In this document: positions 17,584-25,264 of the stretch, piece after piece
Numbering within the stretch: position 1 is the first letter of the stretch
Layout: every line of letters begins with the position of its first letter
IMG/VR virus record: IMGVR_UViG_3300032254_000001
Span: 64,001 to 128,000 of that record
DNA length: 64,000 bases
Source: a virus
Taxonomy: Duplodnaviria; Caudoviricetes
Direction: 5' to 3' (one strand)
Made by a program: the position numbers and the translations under genes
The notes under the pieces: model-generated
The model's input: the letters and a program-made list of their open reading frames with translations, nothing else
Databases searched by the model: none
What the model was told of the DNA's origin: nothing

Positions 17584-17747
17584 TTTATTCTCATTTGTAT
17601 ATATTCTTCAACGTATCTACATGATACGTAACTCCGCATTCTCTACAGAATGTGAAGCCCATTGCATTATATGCAAACCTATGATTGCCGCATACACGGC
17701 ATTTAAATCCTTTTTCTATAAGTAGATCAAGCTTTAACCCAACGGTT

Positions 17748-18179
17748 TCAAGATCCGGATTCGCTGCTTTCTTTGTCATTTTTTTCGTTTTCCTCGTCGA
17801 GGTATTCCTGAGCTGGATCAGGACAGTATGTTTCCATTACGTCCAACAATGCTTTAGCAATATCAAATTGTGCTGCCATTGTTGAGTACGTAACAAGCCG
17901 ACGAATCTCATCAGCTATACCAGTACGTGCTGCGCTATTTGCTAGATTCAGCTGAACAGTAATACCAGCTTCACGCAGGCTGCGAATGTGTTCAGTGTAT
18001 CTAGGTTCAAGAACAGTACTATGAACTTTTATAGTTTCTGCGTGTCCTGGAGTCACACGTTCAACAAGATCCTTAGCTTCTTTAAGGCCAAGTTGAGCAA
18101 GTCCGCGAACTGCTTTAATGCAGGCTATCTTGTTTTCCATATCCTTAACGGTTCTAACTGAAAGTACAACTGTTCTCAT
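17748..18179 (-). CDS. Ribosomal protein bL12 C-terminal-domain-like protein
   Basis: KIACIKAVRGLAQLGLKEAKDLVE matches the bL12 CTD helix motif. Confidence 0.7.
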   Translation of the reverse strand: MRTVVLSVRTVKDMENKIACIKAVRGLAQLGLKEAKDLVERVTPGHAETIKVHSTVLEPRYTEHIRSLREAGITVQLNLANSAARTGIADEIRRLVTYSTMAAQFDIAKALLDVMETYCPDPAQEYLDEENEKNDKESSESGS

Positions 18180-18187
18180 AATGATAC

Positions 18188-18595
18188 CTATTTGTATTCG
18201 CGACGTCCGCCGCCTAAGTCTGTTCTGTTACCTGGATCTGCTTTATCTTGTTCGAATGTCTCAAGTACTACATTTCTGCATACATCAGTAAACCACTGGT
18301 CGACTAAGTCTGCATCTTCTTTACCTTGGTATCCAAATCGCATTAACTGTGCAATGAACTTTTCATTCCAGTCTAGCTCAAATGCGCCATCGGATAAGTT
18401 ATTATAATCTACGTCCATAGTGACAATAGCAACCCACGGTTCGCCACGTGTTGTTGCTGCTGCTTTTTCTTTTTCAAGTTGTGATAAATGATCTTCGATT
18501 TCTTTCTTTGAACGCTTTTTAACTTTAACTGGTTCTGGACTGTTAACATCCTTATTTCGCAATACCTTCCATGCGGCTTTAACTGTTTTAAACAT
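18188..18595 (-). CDS. Conserved hypothetical phage protein
   Basis: GEPWVAIV...GAFELDWNEKFI...VDQWF. Confidence 0.6.
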   Translation of the reverse strand: MFKTVKAAWKVLRNKDVNSPEPVKVKKRSKKEIEDHLSQLEKEKAAATTRGEPWVAIVTMDVDYNNLSDGAFELDWNEKFIAQLMRFGYQGKEDADLVDQWFTDVCRNVVLETFEQDKADPGNRTDLGGGRREYK

Positions 18596-21211
18596 TTATT
18601 CTACCTGACCTTGTAATTTTAAATATGTGTACTGGCGTGGAGTCAACCAGTAGGTATCAGTTGGCCACTGATACAGTTCTTCACCTGTTACCATTTTCTG
18701 GAATGGCCAAATGATTTGTTTTGAGTCTGTGCATCTTTTAATAGTAAGACCGTTGCGCACCATTTTCCAATGTGCATTATATTTGTATACGTTAATTGAC
18801 ATGTCTAGTCCAACATCTGCAGATTCTGTGCCCCAGTACTGTGTCATTATATTTCACCCTTTAAACGCGCAATGATAAATTCATCTTTATCGACCCAATG
18901 TTCACAAAAGTTATCTTTGTAAACATACGCTTCGGACATCATGTTTATTTGTTTACCCGATAATATACACTTCTTTGGCCATAGCGTTACTGTTAGCATC
19001 CATTTATTATACGCTTCTTGGCGTGGTTCGTCAACCGATCCCATCACGAGTTTACTCTATCCCAGCGCCTGCCACCTTCGAGCTTTGCAAATAAAAATTC
19101 TTCTTTTGAAACTTGACGTACTTCTGGCGGAGACCATTTAGATTTAAGTAACTTATGTGTTCGTGTACCTATGTACATTTGTGGAAAGAATCCAGTCCAA
19201 GTTAATGTTGCATAGCACACACGAGGTAAGATGAATCGTTTTAATTCCCACTCAAACTCACCTTCCATTTCTTTTATAAATGCATTTAGTTCGTCTAAGT
19301 CATGATGTGACATTGCCATTACAGATTACCTCTTACACCTTCAAACATAAACGTTTCTCGAGATACCCACTTCTCAATGAGTAGGTCTTCGTAAGGACCT
19401 CGTATAATCTGATAGCCCCTGTACGCCTCGGAGAACATTGGCAGGCGCTTGCCTGTAATGCAATCCTTACGTGGCCAAGCAGTCCAAGTCTTTTCCCACG
19501 TAAACTCTTTCGGTTCCCATTCTTTGCGGATTGCTTCGATGTCGAAGTCACACACTTATAAATTGCCTTTTAACTTTTCAAACATATACGATTCTGATGA
19601 TAACCAGCGTACAAGAAGTAAATCCTCACCCGGGCCAGAAATAATTCTATATCCTCTGTAAGCTACTGAGAACCATGGCATGCGTTTACGTGAAAGACGA
19701 CACCTGCGTGGCCAAGCAGTCCAAGTCTTTTTCCATGTGAAACGTGACATATTTCTAATAGCTTCTTGAGTAAAGCGGTCACCTTGTATTACAGAATCCA
19801 CTGGCATTATATATTACCTTTTAACTTTTGTATAATAAACTGGTCTTCGTTCAACCAAGCAATTGCATAGCTTCCAGCCGCCCTTTCCGTCCCGTATCCG
19901 TATGCTGGATCTGTGGTATGTCCGATTGCAACTACACCGTACCAGCACTTCTGCAAAGGCCAAATCCATTTGCCACTTGCATTGCATCTACGGAACCACG
20001 GGCTCTTCATTGTGCGCCACCGTTTGTGATCGCTGAACAGGATTGACATTAGCATCCCGTCAGACGCCGGTTCCATCTTAGGTATGTACTTCCAATCCTC
20101 AGGACATTTCCAACCCATTATATTCTATTAGTAAGAGTCCTGAAGGTGTATGCCTTTGCAGACAACCACTCAGTCTTACCATCGTCCGGTGAAGGTCGAG
20201 TATGCAGTTTTGTATAGGCTTTAGTTAAAGGCCATATAATTGCATTAGTGTCAACACATCGATGAAAGCCCAAAGCAAGTGTTTCGCTCCAAGACCATCT
20301 AGGTTTGTTTGTGTCTTCTTGGTCGCAACTGCAACCACCGATCCATTCTGTAATCATATCACCCTCTTCTCTTACAGGCATTATATCTGCCCCCTTAGTC
20401 GTCTTATTGTAAACTCTTCTTTTGTTAACCATATCACTTGTGGATAGATAACAAATTCTATTTGGTCTGCTGGCATCTCTGGACACAGTGATTTAACACC
20501 TTTGTATGCTTTCATGCCCGGGTAAATTGTTTTACCACATCCAAAACAGGTCTGCGGTGTAAACACACGCTTAAATGTCCATTCGAAATATTCTACTGGC
20601 TCATCATTACTAAATTTTTTCTGTAGCGTTTCTCTAGCTACGCGCTGTTTAATTATCTTCATCTTCTCTTGAAGAATAAGATTCATGCGCTCTATACGTT
20701 TATCGATATCGTTCCTGATCTTCTCAACTTTAATCTGGACCTCGTCACGACTGCTCACGCTTCACCTTTAAGCTTTAACAGCATATAGCCTTTGTTAGAC
20801 ACCCAACTAAAATCTGTTACTATGTTGCCTTGGTACTCGTAGTTCATCCACCTGCGATGTGCTTTAGTAAGGAAGCCAATACGTTCGCCTGTTACTTTGC
20901 ACTTAACTGGCCACAATGTAATACCTTTTGACCAAATAACAATTGGATGTAACTCAACTCTTGTCATAGTTGTATCCTTTAAGCTTCTGTATAACAAGTT
21001 CTTTTGGTGTTGTCCAGAAAGCAACATATTCCATGTACATTATGCTTGTTGGTCCGTAGCTAGAAATAGGACGACTCCTGCATACCTTTGTAAATGGCAT
21101 AAGCCACTTGCCAGTAAACAGGCACCTGTGCGGAAACAGCATTACTGGTTCATCCCACACACGATGCGCGAGAGAGATATCACCATAGTATGTAGAGACT
21201 ACGTTCCCCAT
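18596..21211 (-). repeat. Tandem array of ten paralogous small genes
   Basis: Shared W..WP..C..SGK.IWP...Y...W....F...KLKG motif in 18596, 18847, 19044, 19319, 19556, 19807, 20118, 20381, 20755 and 20954 ORFs. Confidence 0.85.
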
Positions 21212-22074
21212 TCATTCTTCCAAAGATCAACTTGTAAACGTGGACTGTAACGGAAACCATATGACATTGCTAACTTAGCAACCTCTGGCGCATTTAAATT
21301 ATACATGTCAGGATCACCGCCGCATGGCATAAGATACACTTCACCATCCCATCCAGCTTTTCTGTACTCTTCAACAAAGTCAACAACGTCTGACATGTCA
21401 TCGCGCGTTGCAACTACAAATTTTAAATACACTGTGCCGAACTTCATGTAGCTTGCAACTACCTCTGGCTTCAGTGCATCGCTCGCGTCTTCACCAGACA
21501 TGTACAGCTTAGGACTAACACTAAACGTTAACGATGTGCTTGCTGTAGCATTTTTGATTTGACGTAGCAGTAGGTAGTCTGCAAACTTATCTGTGATCTT
21601 CTGTGTGCCGTTTGTTTCAAAGGTAATGTGTTTGTAACCTTTTTCATAAGCTGCATCAAGCAACTCAGGATATGCACGTTGCCATCCTAGCAGTGGTTCA
21701 CCACCTGTTATAACAAGATGTGTGTTGCCGATGATGCCTGATATATGACCACCGCCTCTACGTGCTTTTTCAATCTCGTCCATTACTACAGGAATATCCA
21801 TAACAGGACTTAATGATTTAAACGCTGGATGCCATGATGCATAACTATCACAACCTGTCTCTGCAAGTGGTAAGCTAGTGTAATCCCATTCCGGGTGTTG
21901 CTTAAGTTGTTCTGCAAACTTTTCTGGCTCGCCTGTGTATTCACCGTTCGGCATACCAAAGCCACGACATTGGAAATTACATCCAAATGTTCTTAGGAAT
22001 ACGCTTGGTACTCCTGTCCATAATCCCTCACCTTGGAGGGAATAAAATATTTCTGCTACTTTAAGTTTTGCCAT
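21199..22074 (-). CDS. queE: 7-carboxy-7-deazaguanine synthase (radical SAM)
   Basis: EIFYSLQGEG...FLRTFGCNFQCRGF...CD; ITGGEPLL; FETNGT; SPK; PRLQVDLW. Confidence 0.9.
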   Translation of the reverse strand: MAKLKVAEIFYSLQGEGLWTGVPSVFLRTFGCNFQCRGFGMPNGEYTGEPEKFAEQLKQHPEWDYTSLPLAETGCDSYASWHPAFKSLSPVMDIPVVMDEIEKARRGGGHISGIIGNTHLVITGGEPLLGWQRAYPELLDAAYEKGYKHITFETNGTQKITDKFADYLLLRQIKNATASTSLTFSVSPKLYMSGEDASDALKPEVVASYMKFGTVYLKFVVATRDDMSDVVDFVEEYRKAGWDGEVYLMPCGGDPDMYNLNAPEVAKLAMSYGFRYSPRLQVDLWKNEWGT

Positions 22075-23378: not shown

Positions 23379-24695
23379 TTATTGTGGTAAAGCAACTCGA
23401 GCAGTATAAACATACGTGCCATTGTTACTGTTTACAACATCAACCATGCCGTCACCTTTAAGGTCGATTATTGTAATGTACTGCGACAGGTCTCCTAGTG
23501 TAGCAACCCTTGTAAACACTTGGTTCACGTTAAGGTATACGCCAACATCAGTATTGCCTGTGTTATCGTTCTTAGCAACAATCATATCCTTAAAGCCATC
23601 GTTGTTAATATCTCGCACAATGAATGATGGATTGTAATTGTGTGCCATTACAACTGGGCTAGGTAGGCGTGTTGCTGTTTCGTCTACGAATTGACCAGTG
23701 GTGTCATAATCATTAATTAACACTTGAACAACACGGTTATCAAAGCCTGCGCTAGTGTTGCCAATAATTAGATCTTCACGACCATCGCCATTAACATCAG
23801 CTACATGAGCTTCTTCAATCTTGCCATCAAGTTGCGAAACTGGCATTGCTATTGTACCTGCGGTGAAGTTACCCTCACCGTCGTTTAGCTCTATGGTACT
23901 TACTGAGTCGCCGTTACCTATGAACAAGTCAGGTGATGTATCGCTGTCTGCTTTAACAAACTGAACCCACATTTCTGCCTGCGGCATAGATGTTTTAACT
24001 GTAAATGAACCCATGCTGTTGTTTTCAAATACGGTTGCACCTGCCCAAGCGGTATTAATAACTAAATCAATATCACCATCGTTATCAATGTCTGCGCTGT
24101 CAATACCGTGCGTATACCAATTACGGGTTAATCCCACACCACTAACATTGATCTCAGGCATGTTGGTATCCATTGCATCGTTGTTAAATGTACCGTATGG
24201 ATTCGAAAGTAATAGTACATCTTTCTCGTACCACGTTGCGCCTGTTGCTACGCCAATTTCAAGTCCGTGGTTACCAAAGTAAATATCATCAGCACCATCA
24301 CCATTAAAGTCTGCAACTTCAATATGACGAGCAAGTGCTATGGCAGGAACGGTAGCTAACATTGTGCTAGTTTTATCTTCTAGCTCACCTGCTGCACTTT
24401 GTAGGTATATCTTAATTGGAACACCTAACCAGGGCTGAACTTGATCATCGCCTGGATCACTGCCTGCAAATGTAACAACTAAATCTTCAAGCCCATCACC
24501 GTTGAAATCGCCTGTTGCTGAGTTTGTATATGATGATGTATCAAGTTGCGTTGCATTATTAAAGTATGTATCTGTTATTTCCGATGGTACTAGTGGCTCA
24601 ACTGGTGCTGTAACTGAAGCTGGACCGCCGCTTCCACCACCACATGCTGTTAGGATCGAACACGTTGCTGCCACTACTAGTATTGATTTAACCAT
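23379..24695 (-). CDS. FG-GAP/VCBS-repeat lipoprotein (beta-propeller)
   Basis: Lipobox LTAC; repeated DFNGDG/DIDNDGDIDL/DVNGDGREDL Ca-binding motifs. Confidence 0.85.
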   Translation of the reverse strand: MVKSILVVAATCSILTACGGGSGGPASVTAPVEPLVPSEITDTYFNNATQLDTSSYTNSATGDFNGDGLEDLVVTFAGSDPGDDQVQPWLGVPIKIYLQSAAGELEDKTSTMLATVPAIALARHIEVADFNGDGADDIYFGNHGLEIGVATGATWYEKDVLLLSNPYGTFNNDAMDTNMPEINVSGVGLTRNWYTHGIDSADIDNDGDIDLVINTAWAGATVFENNSMGSFTVKTSMPQAEMWVQFVKADSDTSPDLFIGNGDSVSTIELNDGEGNFTAGTIAMPVSQLDGKIEEAHVADVNGDGREDLIIGNTSAGFDNRVVQVLINDYDTTGQFVDETATRLPSPVVMAHNYNPSFIVRDINNDGFKDMIVAKNDNTGNTDVGVYLNVNQVFTRVATLGDLSQYITIIDLKGDGMVDVVNSNNGTYVYTARVALPQ

Positions 24696-24714: not shown

Positions 24715-24868
24715 ACTATGTACTAATTATATGGCTATTTGGGCAAAAGGTCAACCTTTTTGTGCATTATTTTTGCATTATTTTGGGTAATAAAATCAAT
24801 AAGTTAGCACCCCGTAGGGGCTATGTTTTTGATTTTATAAGGTTTTCAAACCCAAAATCAATGACTTA
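24715..24868 (-). promoter_or_regulatory. Sigma70-type early promoter with IHF boxes
   Basis: TTGACC-17-TATAAT inside AAAAGGT-TG-ACCTTTT; IHF-like AAAATCAATAAGTTA 24792-24806 and AAAATCAATGACTTA 24854-24868. Confidence 0.8.
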
Positions 24869-25264
24869 CAGTAGCTTCAAATCACCGGTGATTTTGTCAA
24901 TTTCTTCAGATACGCCAGGCCCTATTGCAACTGCTGTATAGGTAGGAACCCCGCCAAACTCAGTAAATCCAGCATCCTGTATCAAACTGCATGGCAAACC
25001 AGCGTCTATTGCTTCTTTGTGTACTGATCGCAACTTTTCTTCGCTGTCAACGGATACGCAGATTTTAGTAAAGCGGCCGGTTAGCCATTCCTTTATGTCT
25101 TCATTTAAGTAAATACTAAAATGTTCGCTATCAGACATCTCGCCGCGATTTAGCAGTACTGCCATAGATGCATGAGCACCTTGTGCAACCATCTTGCCTT
25201 TGCGCATGTTTAAATCTTTACGCAGGACAATAACTTGCTTAACTGCTTTAGGGTTCTTTGCCAT
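24866..25264 (-). CDS. pth2: Peptidyl-tRNA hydrolase type 2
   Basis: KQVIVLRKDLNMRKGKMVAQGAHAS...W...KICV...IQDAGFTE...T..AIGP...IDKITGDLKLL. Confidence 0.95.
   Translation of the reverse strand: MAKNPKAVKQVIVLRKDLNMRKGKMVAQGAHASMAVLLNRGEMSDSEHFSIYLNEDIKEWLTGRFTKICVSVDSEEKLRSVHKEAIDAGLPCSLIQDAGFTEFGGVPTYTAVAIGPGVSEEIDKITGDLKLL

Follow-up and report, generated by a model that had tools for sequence, protein, structure and literature searches.

Ten diverged paralogues of an unnamed small protein family form a tandem array behind a queE-like gene in an uncultured jumbo phage

Results

Ten small genes are packed without gaps downstream of a queE-like gene

The window analysed in this study, 64,000 nucleotides (nt) in length, corresponds to bases 64001-128000 of the IMG/VR phage genome IMGVR_UViG_3300032254_000001 (344,483 bp, direct terminal repeats present). 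Nearly all genes of the window are carried on the minus strand, and among them ten consecutive open reading frames (ORFs) coding for small proteins of 66-125 amino acids (aa) were found at positions 18596-21211 (minus strand), where the intergenic space is zero. The conserved upstream anchor of this array is a queE-like radical-SAM gene of the 7-carboxy-7-deazaguanine synthase type (21199..22074, minus strand; PHROG 2076, E 3e-53), whose stop is overlapped by 13 nt by the start of the first copy. The copies are numbered c1 to c10 from queE onwards, and their products comprise 85, 70, 125, 87, 103, 83, 78, 91, 66 and 83 aa, respectively, internal ATGs being taken as starts for c2 and c4. Five junctions are of the TAATG type and two of the GTGA type, in two cases the stop is directly followed by the next start, and c1 and c2 overlap by 14 nt. 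The ten genes form one dense block behind queE that is probably co-transcribed; in a promoter and terminator scan, counts were not above those in shuffled sequence.

Relatedness of the ten products was analyzed by leave-one-out searches, in which a hidden Markov model (HMM) of nine copies was used to detect the tenth (Z = 627 window ORFs). Homology was significant for all ten (E 1.8e-7 to 1.2e-19), and the best ORF of the window outside the family reached E 0.14. A six-frame profile search of the whole genome detected exactly these ten copies and none elsewhere. Judged from their sequences, the ten genes are true paralogues of one diverged family, as had been proposed in an earlier note on this DNA, which had also described them, with the same coordinates, as consecutive and translationally coupled. 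The same note had called c6 and c7 near-duplicates; they are the closest pair, but share only 59% aa and 63% nt identity, and the synonymous divergence (dS) between them is saturated. Among the other copies, pairwise aa identity is 11-34%.

All copies are encoded on the minus strand. What varies between them is the N-terminal extension, one loop and the net charge, with isoelectric points (pI) spanning 5.5 to 10.7. Contigs and proteins used for comparison carry L and P numbers. c1 (20954..21211; leave-one-out E 6.7e-9) belongs to a subfamily recognized by 'MGNV..YYGDISL' and has a 72%-identical orthologue, P0006/L009. c2 (20755..20967, starting at the internal ATG at 20967; E 1.1e-11) pairs in the family tree with L010:8852-9097 (98% support). 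c3 (20381..20758; E 8.1e-9), which starts with a GTG in a GTGA overlap, pairs with L010:9598-9972 (99% support); its ~55 N-terminal residues are charged and coiled-coil-like, its C-terminal end reads RRLRGQI, and representatives of its subfamily were found in metagenomes (P0036, P0038, P0069, P0092, P0123 and P0150). c4 (20118..20381, TAATG junction; E 1e-10) is nearest to L010:9975-10229 at 46% identity and is the sole copy without the KLKG end, terminating in TLTNRI instead. c5 (19807..20118, TAATG junction; E 6e-12) is 54-59% identical to P0022 and P0057 and has its own conserved N-terminal extension (W-x-C-P-x-D-W ... ASDGM) as well as a long loop.

c6 (19556..19807; pI 10.7; E 1.2e-19) is the copy used for structure modelling below, and its sister c7 (19319..19555; pI 5.5; 97% support) begins with a GTG directly after the c6 stop. 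The most diverged copy is c8 (19044..19319; E 1.8e-7), in which the otherwise conserved W68 is replaced; it pairs with L010:10232-10510 (99% support), and both carry the same kind of C-terminal extension, GGRRWDRVNS in c8. c9 (18847..19047; E 1.4e-12) is a nearly bare core that starts either at the GTG at 19047 in a GTGA overlap or at the ATG at 19044, and it pairs with L010:10745-10957 (99% support, 61% identity). c10 (18596..18847, TAATG junction; E 1.4e-8) has its nearest relative in P0098 (47% identity), and its stop is followed without a gap by the ATG of the gene behind it.

The array belongs to a large family without a name

An exhaustive profile search over 1.84 billion cluster representatives identified 435 family representatives at E≤1e-3, of which 54 reached E≤1e-10; with few exceptions they are 57-131 aa long and unnamed. 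The motif given in the earlier note matches the family profile of 144 sequences, and the variable N-termini and the one variable loop described there hold for the family. Conserved profile positions include W25 (94%), C36 (94%), S/T39 (97%), I43 (76%) and W68 (95%), together with S/T70 (77%), Y/F74 (88%), L79 (90%) and G81 (82%). In c6 numbering, the signature reads W25, P/F33, R/H34, R/K35, C36, S/T39, G/K/N40, K41, I43 and W44-P45-F46 in the N-terminal half, followed by K48-A49-Y50-R/K51-G52, often G58-P59-G60, W68, S/T70, Y/F74 and K78-L79-K80-G81 in the C-terminal half; after G81, two residues remain before the C-terminus. The core of ~60 residues is basic and aromatic-rich, with a median pI of 9.7, a median net charge of +5 and a pI >9 in 79% of the cores.

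The earlier note could not name the family, and this was confirmed: neither the ten copies nor 145 family members gave a family match in Pfam, PHROGs, NCBIfam or PADLOC (a PHROG match was found for 0 of the 145). Matches to RRN9, YhfH and DUF7511 in these scans, and to PbeC on the coiled coil of c3, were dismissed as noise. Among 50,697 GenBank phages, no tblastn match was obtained for c6, P0157 or P0020 and no megablast match for the array region, and in BFVD a single clear member was found, 41% identical and assigned to an 'uncultured Caudovirales phage'.

Two family-related proteins depart from the single-domain layout. P0043 (147 aa, on a Logan contig of 2295 bp) is a natural fusion of two family domains with two matched stretches. 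In P0032 (1246 aa), 18 short stretches match profile positions 24-43, the knuckle block described below; this may point to a repeat protein assembled from that block, or to an artefact of composition.

The copies are old and most have orthologues in other phages

For nine of the ten copies, the exception lying in the c6/c7 pair, a relative in another phage (40-72% identity) is closer than the best paralogue in the same genome (28-35%). One-to-one partners in L010 were recovered for c2, c3, c8 and c9 in the family tree (98-99% in the SH-like approximate likelihood ratio test, SH-aLRT), and c1 groups with copies of L009 and L011. c6 and c7 together match single copies in L010 and L011, and on this tree they are the only lineage-specific duplicate. 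Metagenomic representatives repeat whole subfamilies, each with its own N-terminal extension. In a tree of the QueE proteins, all arrays of 3-10 copies fall into one clade with the window (99% local support), and single copies are scattered over other clades. Between near-identical QueE loci, the small gene can be present or absent (L077 versus L075, L023 versus L024).

Ratios of non-synonymous to synonymous divergence (dN/dS, Nei-Gojobori) ranged from 0.09 to 0.38 across pairs of orthologues and paralogues, most of which had saturated dS; the ratio for c6/c7 was 0.09, and for the single-copy orthologues of L091 and L092 dN was 0 at a dS of 0.15. The sole DNA repeat in the array is a 34-nt gene end common to c5, c6 and c7. 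The public sequencing runs that contain the stretch are two microbial-mat DNA metagenomes, one of them possibly the source run, and no RNA run is listed among them. Contigs from the putative source run and the second mat run contained no joints and no indels and were identical where the array was covered, the cover of the second run being fragmentary. Trees and alignments thus describe an old, clade-specific expansion that produced stable subfamilies and was followed by gains and losses, and subfunctionalised paralogues under purifying selection fit these sequence data better than an accordion.

The family usually lies behind queE, apparently in a variable slot

All ORFs in 80 viral contigs around QueE homologues were scanned for family members. 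They were present in 20 of the 80 loci and always stood immediately after QueE, as one copy in sixteen loci and as three, five and eight copies in L087, L011 and L010. When the whole contigs of five relatives were searched, copies were found only in the array behind queE. Many contigs of T4-like phages carry the gene once. The contexts of six further representatives were similar in four cases, with QueE directly upstream (L009; L091-94; L098, ~5-6 copies; L099/100, 5 copies), and in the remaining two the family followed a UvdE endonuclease gene (L095-97) or an AAA-like gene (L090), and no queE was seen there. The queE-linked family loci additionally contain folE, queD and a phosphoribosyltransferase gene.

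In 60 of the 80 related QueE loci, the slot after queE is filled by unrelated genes such as small membrane ORFs. On the far side, the array is closed by a 135-aa gene (18188..18595, minus strand; PHROG 13349 'virion structural protein', E 5.8e-15) whose product has a conserved core E-P-W-V ... E-L-D-W-N ... D-Q-W-F. Because this gene seems homologous to genes close behind QueE in two other loci (L029:1691-2017 and L084:2233-2553, a by-eye, unscored match), the array seems, from the gene order, to sit in a slot of variable content that has a conserved gene on either side.

In L021, L023-L028 and L081-L085, one or two small two-helix, membrane-like ORFs that end in H-E-R-I/V-W-L-K-I-x-W-G and are DUF2061-like by eye lie just after QueE. 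Small two-helix ORFs in this position were considered as diverged family members and rejected, with HMM scores of ~0-4 bits.

The predicted core resembles a treble-clef finger that lacks its zinc site

An AlphaFold2 model of c6, calculated from a 145-sequence alignment, had a mean predicted local distance difference test (pLDDT) score of 83.8, with ~90 in the core. In this model, a first strand (residues 24-29) precedes short bridges near Cys36, two further strands span residues 48-56 and 63-70, and residues 71-80 form a helix; a 36-sequence alignment led to the same topology. For both models, the best Foldseek matches in the PDB were mostly the Zn1 and Zn2 fingers of PARP-1 and fingers of DNA ligase III (E 0.05-1.5, probability up to 1.0, template modelling (TM) score 0.43-0.52). 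The nearest named ESM Atlas clusters were zf-PARP (TM 0.57-0.67, root mean square deviation 2.2 Å over 57-61 residues), and in BFVD small phage and giant-virus proteins annotated as PARP-type were found at similar TM. VIA-align, which is independent of Foldseek, gave Z 5-6 to RING, C1 and zf-PARP fingers, values that may reflect common arrangement alone. RING, C1 and zf-PARP fingers are all treble-clef fingers. A feature-based ESM Atlas search (scores ≤0.76) was uninformative.

Of the four metal ligands of such fingers, one is preserved. In the 144 sequences, only the first Cys is kept (Cys36), the position three residues further on being the conserved Ser/Thr, and at the start of the helix (position 70) His occurs in 5 of 144 sequences, where Ser/Thr prevails. 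The C-x2-C ... H-x2-C ligand set of zf-PARP (PF00645) is absent from the family. The Pfam zf-PARP model matched none of the ten copies, none of the 145 members and nothing in the genome when all six frames were searched at E≤10, and a literature search found no report of zf-PARP in bacteriophages. The core would thus fold as a treble-clef or PARP-finger-like beta-hairpin 'knuckle' with a C-terminal helix, its zinc site being lost; Cys would be kept at ligand position 1 and Ser/Thr would stand at positions 2 and 3, as placed by sequence register and secondary structure alone. Because the zinc ligands are absent, any homology of the modelled fold to zinc fingers is inferred from geometry only.

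A second lead came from searches of all PDB sequences. With the full-length family profile, the eukaryotic ribosomal protein eS21 accounted for 5 of 5 matches, and with a core-only profile for 15 of 16, these being 15 distinct eS21 sequences, all in the same register (best E 0.09). The family block l-W-P-R-R/K-C-x-x-S-G/N-K/R-x-I aligns with Y-V-P-R-K-C-S-x-S-N-R-x-I of eS21 (residues 12-38), at a sub-significant level. In the structural search, eS21 chains reached VIA Z 3.5-4.1. The Pfam S21e model (PF01249) matched neither the genome, nor the contigs of five relatives, nor the family consensus; one of the 145 members gave a match at E 0.057, and the gathering score of 25 bits was not reached.

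Conserved gene ends may serve as ribosome-binding sites

Upstream of 76 long genes of the window, no Shine-Dalgarno-like word is more frequent than AAGG (30% versus 7% background), which peaks at -13 to -9. In the array, the conserved C-terminal Lys/Arg-Gly codons (AAR/AGR-GGN), which lie two codons ahead of the stop and read AAAGG, AAGGG, AGAGG or similar, precede the start of the following gene by ~9-13 nt, and in most cases the stop overlaps that start. Each gene unit of the array would thereby supply the ribosome-binding site for the following gene. Since the K/R-G motif is conserved in single-copy family genes as well, it is primarily a protein feature. c4 is alone in lacking it, and c5 would therefore depend on the TAATG overlap.

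Source of the array and further genes in its vicinity

The family-B DNA polymerase of the phage shares at most 47% identity with those of Sinorhizobium phage Phosso, Agrobacterium phage Atu_ph07, Rak2-like E. coli jumbo phages and other T4-like phages, and for this reason the source of the array is, by polymerase comparison, a distant, uncultured T4-like jumbo phage.

Several further genes of the minus strand lie close to the array. A 143-aa protein encoded at 17748-18179 gave a partial match to the C-terminal domain (CTD) of ribosomal protein L7/L12 (PF00542, E 2.4e-9, residues 15-44) and, from this match, may represent a bL12-like protein encoded by a virus, a kind described in PMC6375957. 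Within its gene, a 33-37-nt stretch (18056-18092) is common to contigs of other organisms. At 17591-17779, a 62-aa zinc-ribbon protein with a TFIIB/Rrn7-type ribbon match is encoded (PF11781, E 1.4e-6); archaeo-eukaryotic-type zinc ribbons have been noted in jumbo phages (Iyer et al., 2021, PMC7824862). On the other side of the array, 23379-24695 encodes a 438-aa protein with FG-GAP repeats, one segment of which resembles the periplasmic lysozyme inhibitor PliI (E 5e-9), and 24866-25264 encodes a peptidyl-tRNA hydrolase of the PTH2 type (PF01981, E 2e-32), an archaeal/eukaryotic type found here in a phage.

Discussion

Taken together, we favour the explanation, with a probability of about 0.5, that the array represents an ancient, clade-specific expansion of an undescribed, widespread phage protein family whose small members may be finger-like nucleic-acid binders. 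What is new here is a large unnamed family that seems to be missing from cultured phages, the predicted zinc-less finger-like fold of its core, its preferred place behind queE and its old, conserved subfamilies. With regard to function, we tentatively regard the paralogues as small DNA- or RNA-binding adaptors, a role suggested by the basic core, the finger-like fold of the model and the neighbourhoods, namely the queE/folE/queD DNA-modification clusters and UvdE. The proteins would act as nucleic-acid-binding modules, on DNA more likely than on RNA; owing to the variable N-termini and the loop, targets or partners would differ from paralogue to paralogue, and the genes would be accessory genes in a variable slot of a DNA-modification or DNA-metabolism region.

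A number of observations weigh against this explanation. The structural matches are middling throughout (Foldseek E ≥0.05; VIA Z <8, the common range), the zinc ligands are missing from the family and the genome contains no match to the Pfam zf-PARP model. Moreover, a shared fold does not show function, and four of the ten copies of the window are acidic or neutral (pI 5.5-7.9), which fits protein binding equally well. The adjacency to queE may have been inherited as synteny and need not mean a link in function; the slot contains unrelated genes in three quarters of the loci surveyed (60/80).

Nearly as likely as a role on nucleic acids, and itself a possibility to be held with some doubt, is that the paralogues are host-takeover or anti-defence proteins, each blocking or decoying a different host protein and using the finger-like core as a scaffold only. 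Small accessory proteins whose genes come and go between close relatives, sit in a variable slot among other accessory genes and vary in N-terminus, one loop and charge would suit such binders, and treble-clef folds, with RING and C1 fingers among the structural matches, often mediate protein binding. The consistently basic core of the family is less easily accommodated, as are the lack of a diversifying-selection signature and the conservation of subfamilies across phages whose QueE proteins are only 50-72% identical; known families gave no match either, PADLOC covering defence models only and PHROGs returning nothing meaningful. The earlier note had suggested roles of this sort (anti-defence proteins, host-factor decoys or adaptors of variable specificity) and had read the array as an accordion-type expansion under diversifying selection. 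Copy-number variation, for which it had suggested a search with a family profile, was indeed found among related phages (0, 1, 3, 5, 8 and 10 copies), so that the array is not invariant, and it matches no named family. Neither the recent accordion nor the diversifying selection was upheld. A recent genomic accordion, i.e. rapid tandem amplification and fast divergence in an ongoing arms race, could account for the copy numbers among relatives with arrays (3, 5, 5, 8 and 10) and for the lineage-specific duplication of c6/c7. Yet even this closest pair has saturated dS at 63% DNA identity, no repeat exceeds 34 nt, orthologues are common to several phages, and the second mat sample, with its fragmentary cover, is identical over the parts of the array covered. 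Because closer relatives are found elsewhere than in the genome, orthologues form pairs, dN/dS does not exceed 0.38 and long DNA repeats are lacking, the accordion under diversifying selection is unsupported, and we give the recent accordion the least credence of all explanations considered.

The position of the array raises the question of a link to QueE itself. The paralogues could be accessory factors of the QueE/7-deazaguanine DNA-modification pathway, for example partners that target or regulate modification; the start of c1 overlaps the queE stop, the family follows queE immediately in most of the contexts sampled (20 viral loci as well as L009, L091-94, L098 and L099/100), and the same loci contain folE, queD and the phosphoribosyltransferase gene. 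As most related QueE genes occur without the family (60/80) and some members lie elsewhere, after UvdE or the AAA-like gene, this role is less likely, and we consider it unlikely overall. Near-identical QueE genes exist with and without the family gene, and ten divergent partners for one enzyme are hard to rationalise. A complex prediction for QueE and c1 gave a score of 0.01, which is no verdict and counts neither for nor against binding. More improbable still is that the family is a ribosome- or RNA-binding relative of eukaryotic eS21 that alters host translation. It would then be a zinc-less finger truly homologous to eS21, and its paralogues would bind rRNA, the ribosome or RNA and tune host translation beside the bL12-like, PTH2 and tRNA genes. 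The single register of the PDB profile matches (15/16, best E 0.09), the eS21 chains at Z 3.5-4.1, the similar length (~83-89 aa), the layout of beta strands followed by a helix, and the nearby bL12-CTD-like and PTH2 genes are in line with this idea. However, the matches stay above E 0.05, cover only ~27 residues and are not independent of one another; the reverse Pfam S21e searches of the genome, the five relatives' contigs and the consensus were empty, zf-PARP, RING and C1 fingers score higher structurally, and bacterial hosts have no eS21 site.

Large phages spend much coding space on arrays of tiny unnamed proteins, of which the present array is a clean and well-bounded example. It also corrects a tempting reading, as genes that are tandem, diverged and small do not by these traits alone imply an arms-race accordion. 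The family is tractable, with hundreds of metagenomic clusters, a confident structure model, a signature, a preferred address after queE in regions of DNA hypermodification and about ten stable subfamilies in one clade. Should the domain read DNA structure or modified bases, it would be a new component of phage 7-deazaguanine biology; should the eS21 homology be true, its members would be the first eS21 relatives outside eukaryotes and would matter for how a 'eukaryote-only' ribosomal protein arose.

Among known systems, the gene accordions of poxviruses, in which K3L is amplified in tandem under selection, resemble the array in that tandem copies of a small accessory gene are found in a virus and copy number differs between relatives. 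Poxvirus-type accordions are, however, recent, near-identical, recombination-driven and transient, whereas the array copies are old, share 11-59% aa identity and are under purifying selection. With eS21 (PF01249), the family has in common the block P-R-K/R-C-x-x-S-N/G-R/K-x-I, the length and the order of beta strands and C-terminal helix, but the match is sub-threshold (E ≥0.09) and confined to this one block. The PARP-type finger (PF00645) is the closest named fold in three structure libraries. Like the family, it has a basic surface; the one conserved Cys of the family follows basic residues in the beta-hairpin knuckle, and the Ser/Thr with which its C-terminal helix begins takes the place that the last ligands have in a treble-clef finger. 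The family differs from it in lacking the C-x2-C...H-x2-C set and any sequence match to PF00645, and the scores are middling.

The nearest described case is Bacillus phage G, in which a lineage-specific expansion of ~35 zinc-ribbon proteins was reported, the ribbons being proposed to act as specific transcription factors or to bind DNA in a structural role (Iyer et al., 2021, Viruses 13:63, PMC7824862). In contrast to those ~35 ribbons, the copies described here number ten, lie in one operon-like array behind queE and are treble-clef or PARP-finger-like with their metal ligands lost; unlike in phage G, the family is single-copy in many smaller phage contigs, and its paralogues have orthologues in other phages. 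Lineage-specific expansion of a small finger-like protein is nevertheless seen in both, with ten copies here and arrays of 3-8 only in the same QueE clade, and in each a jumbo phage holds many diverged copies of one very small finger-type domain.

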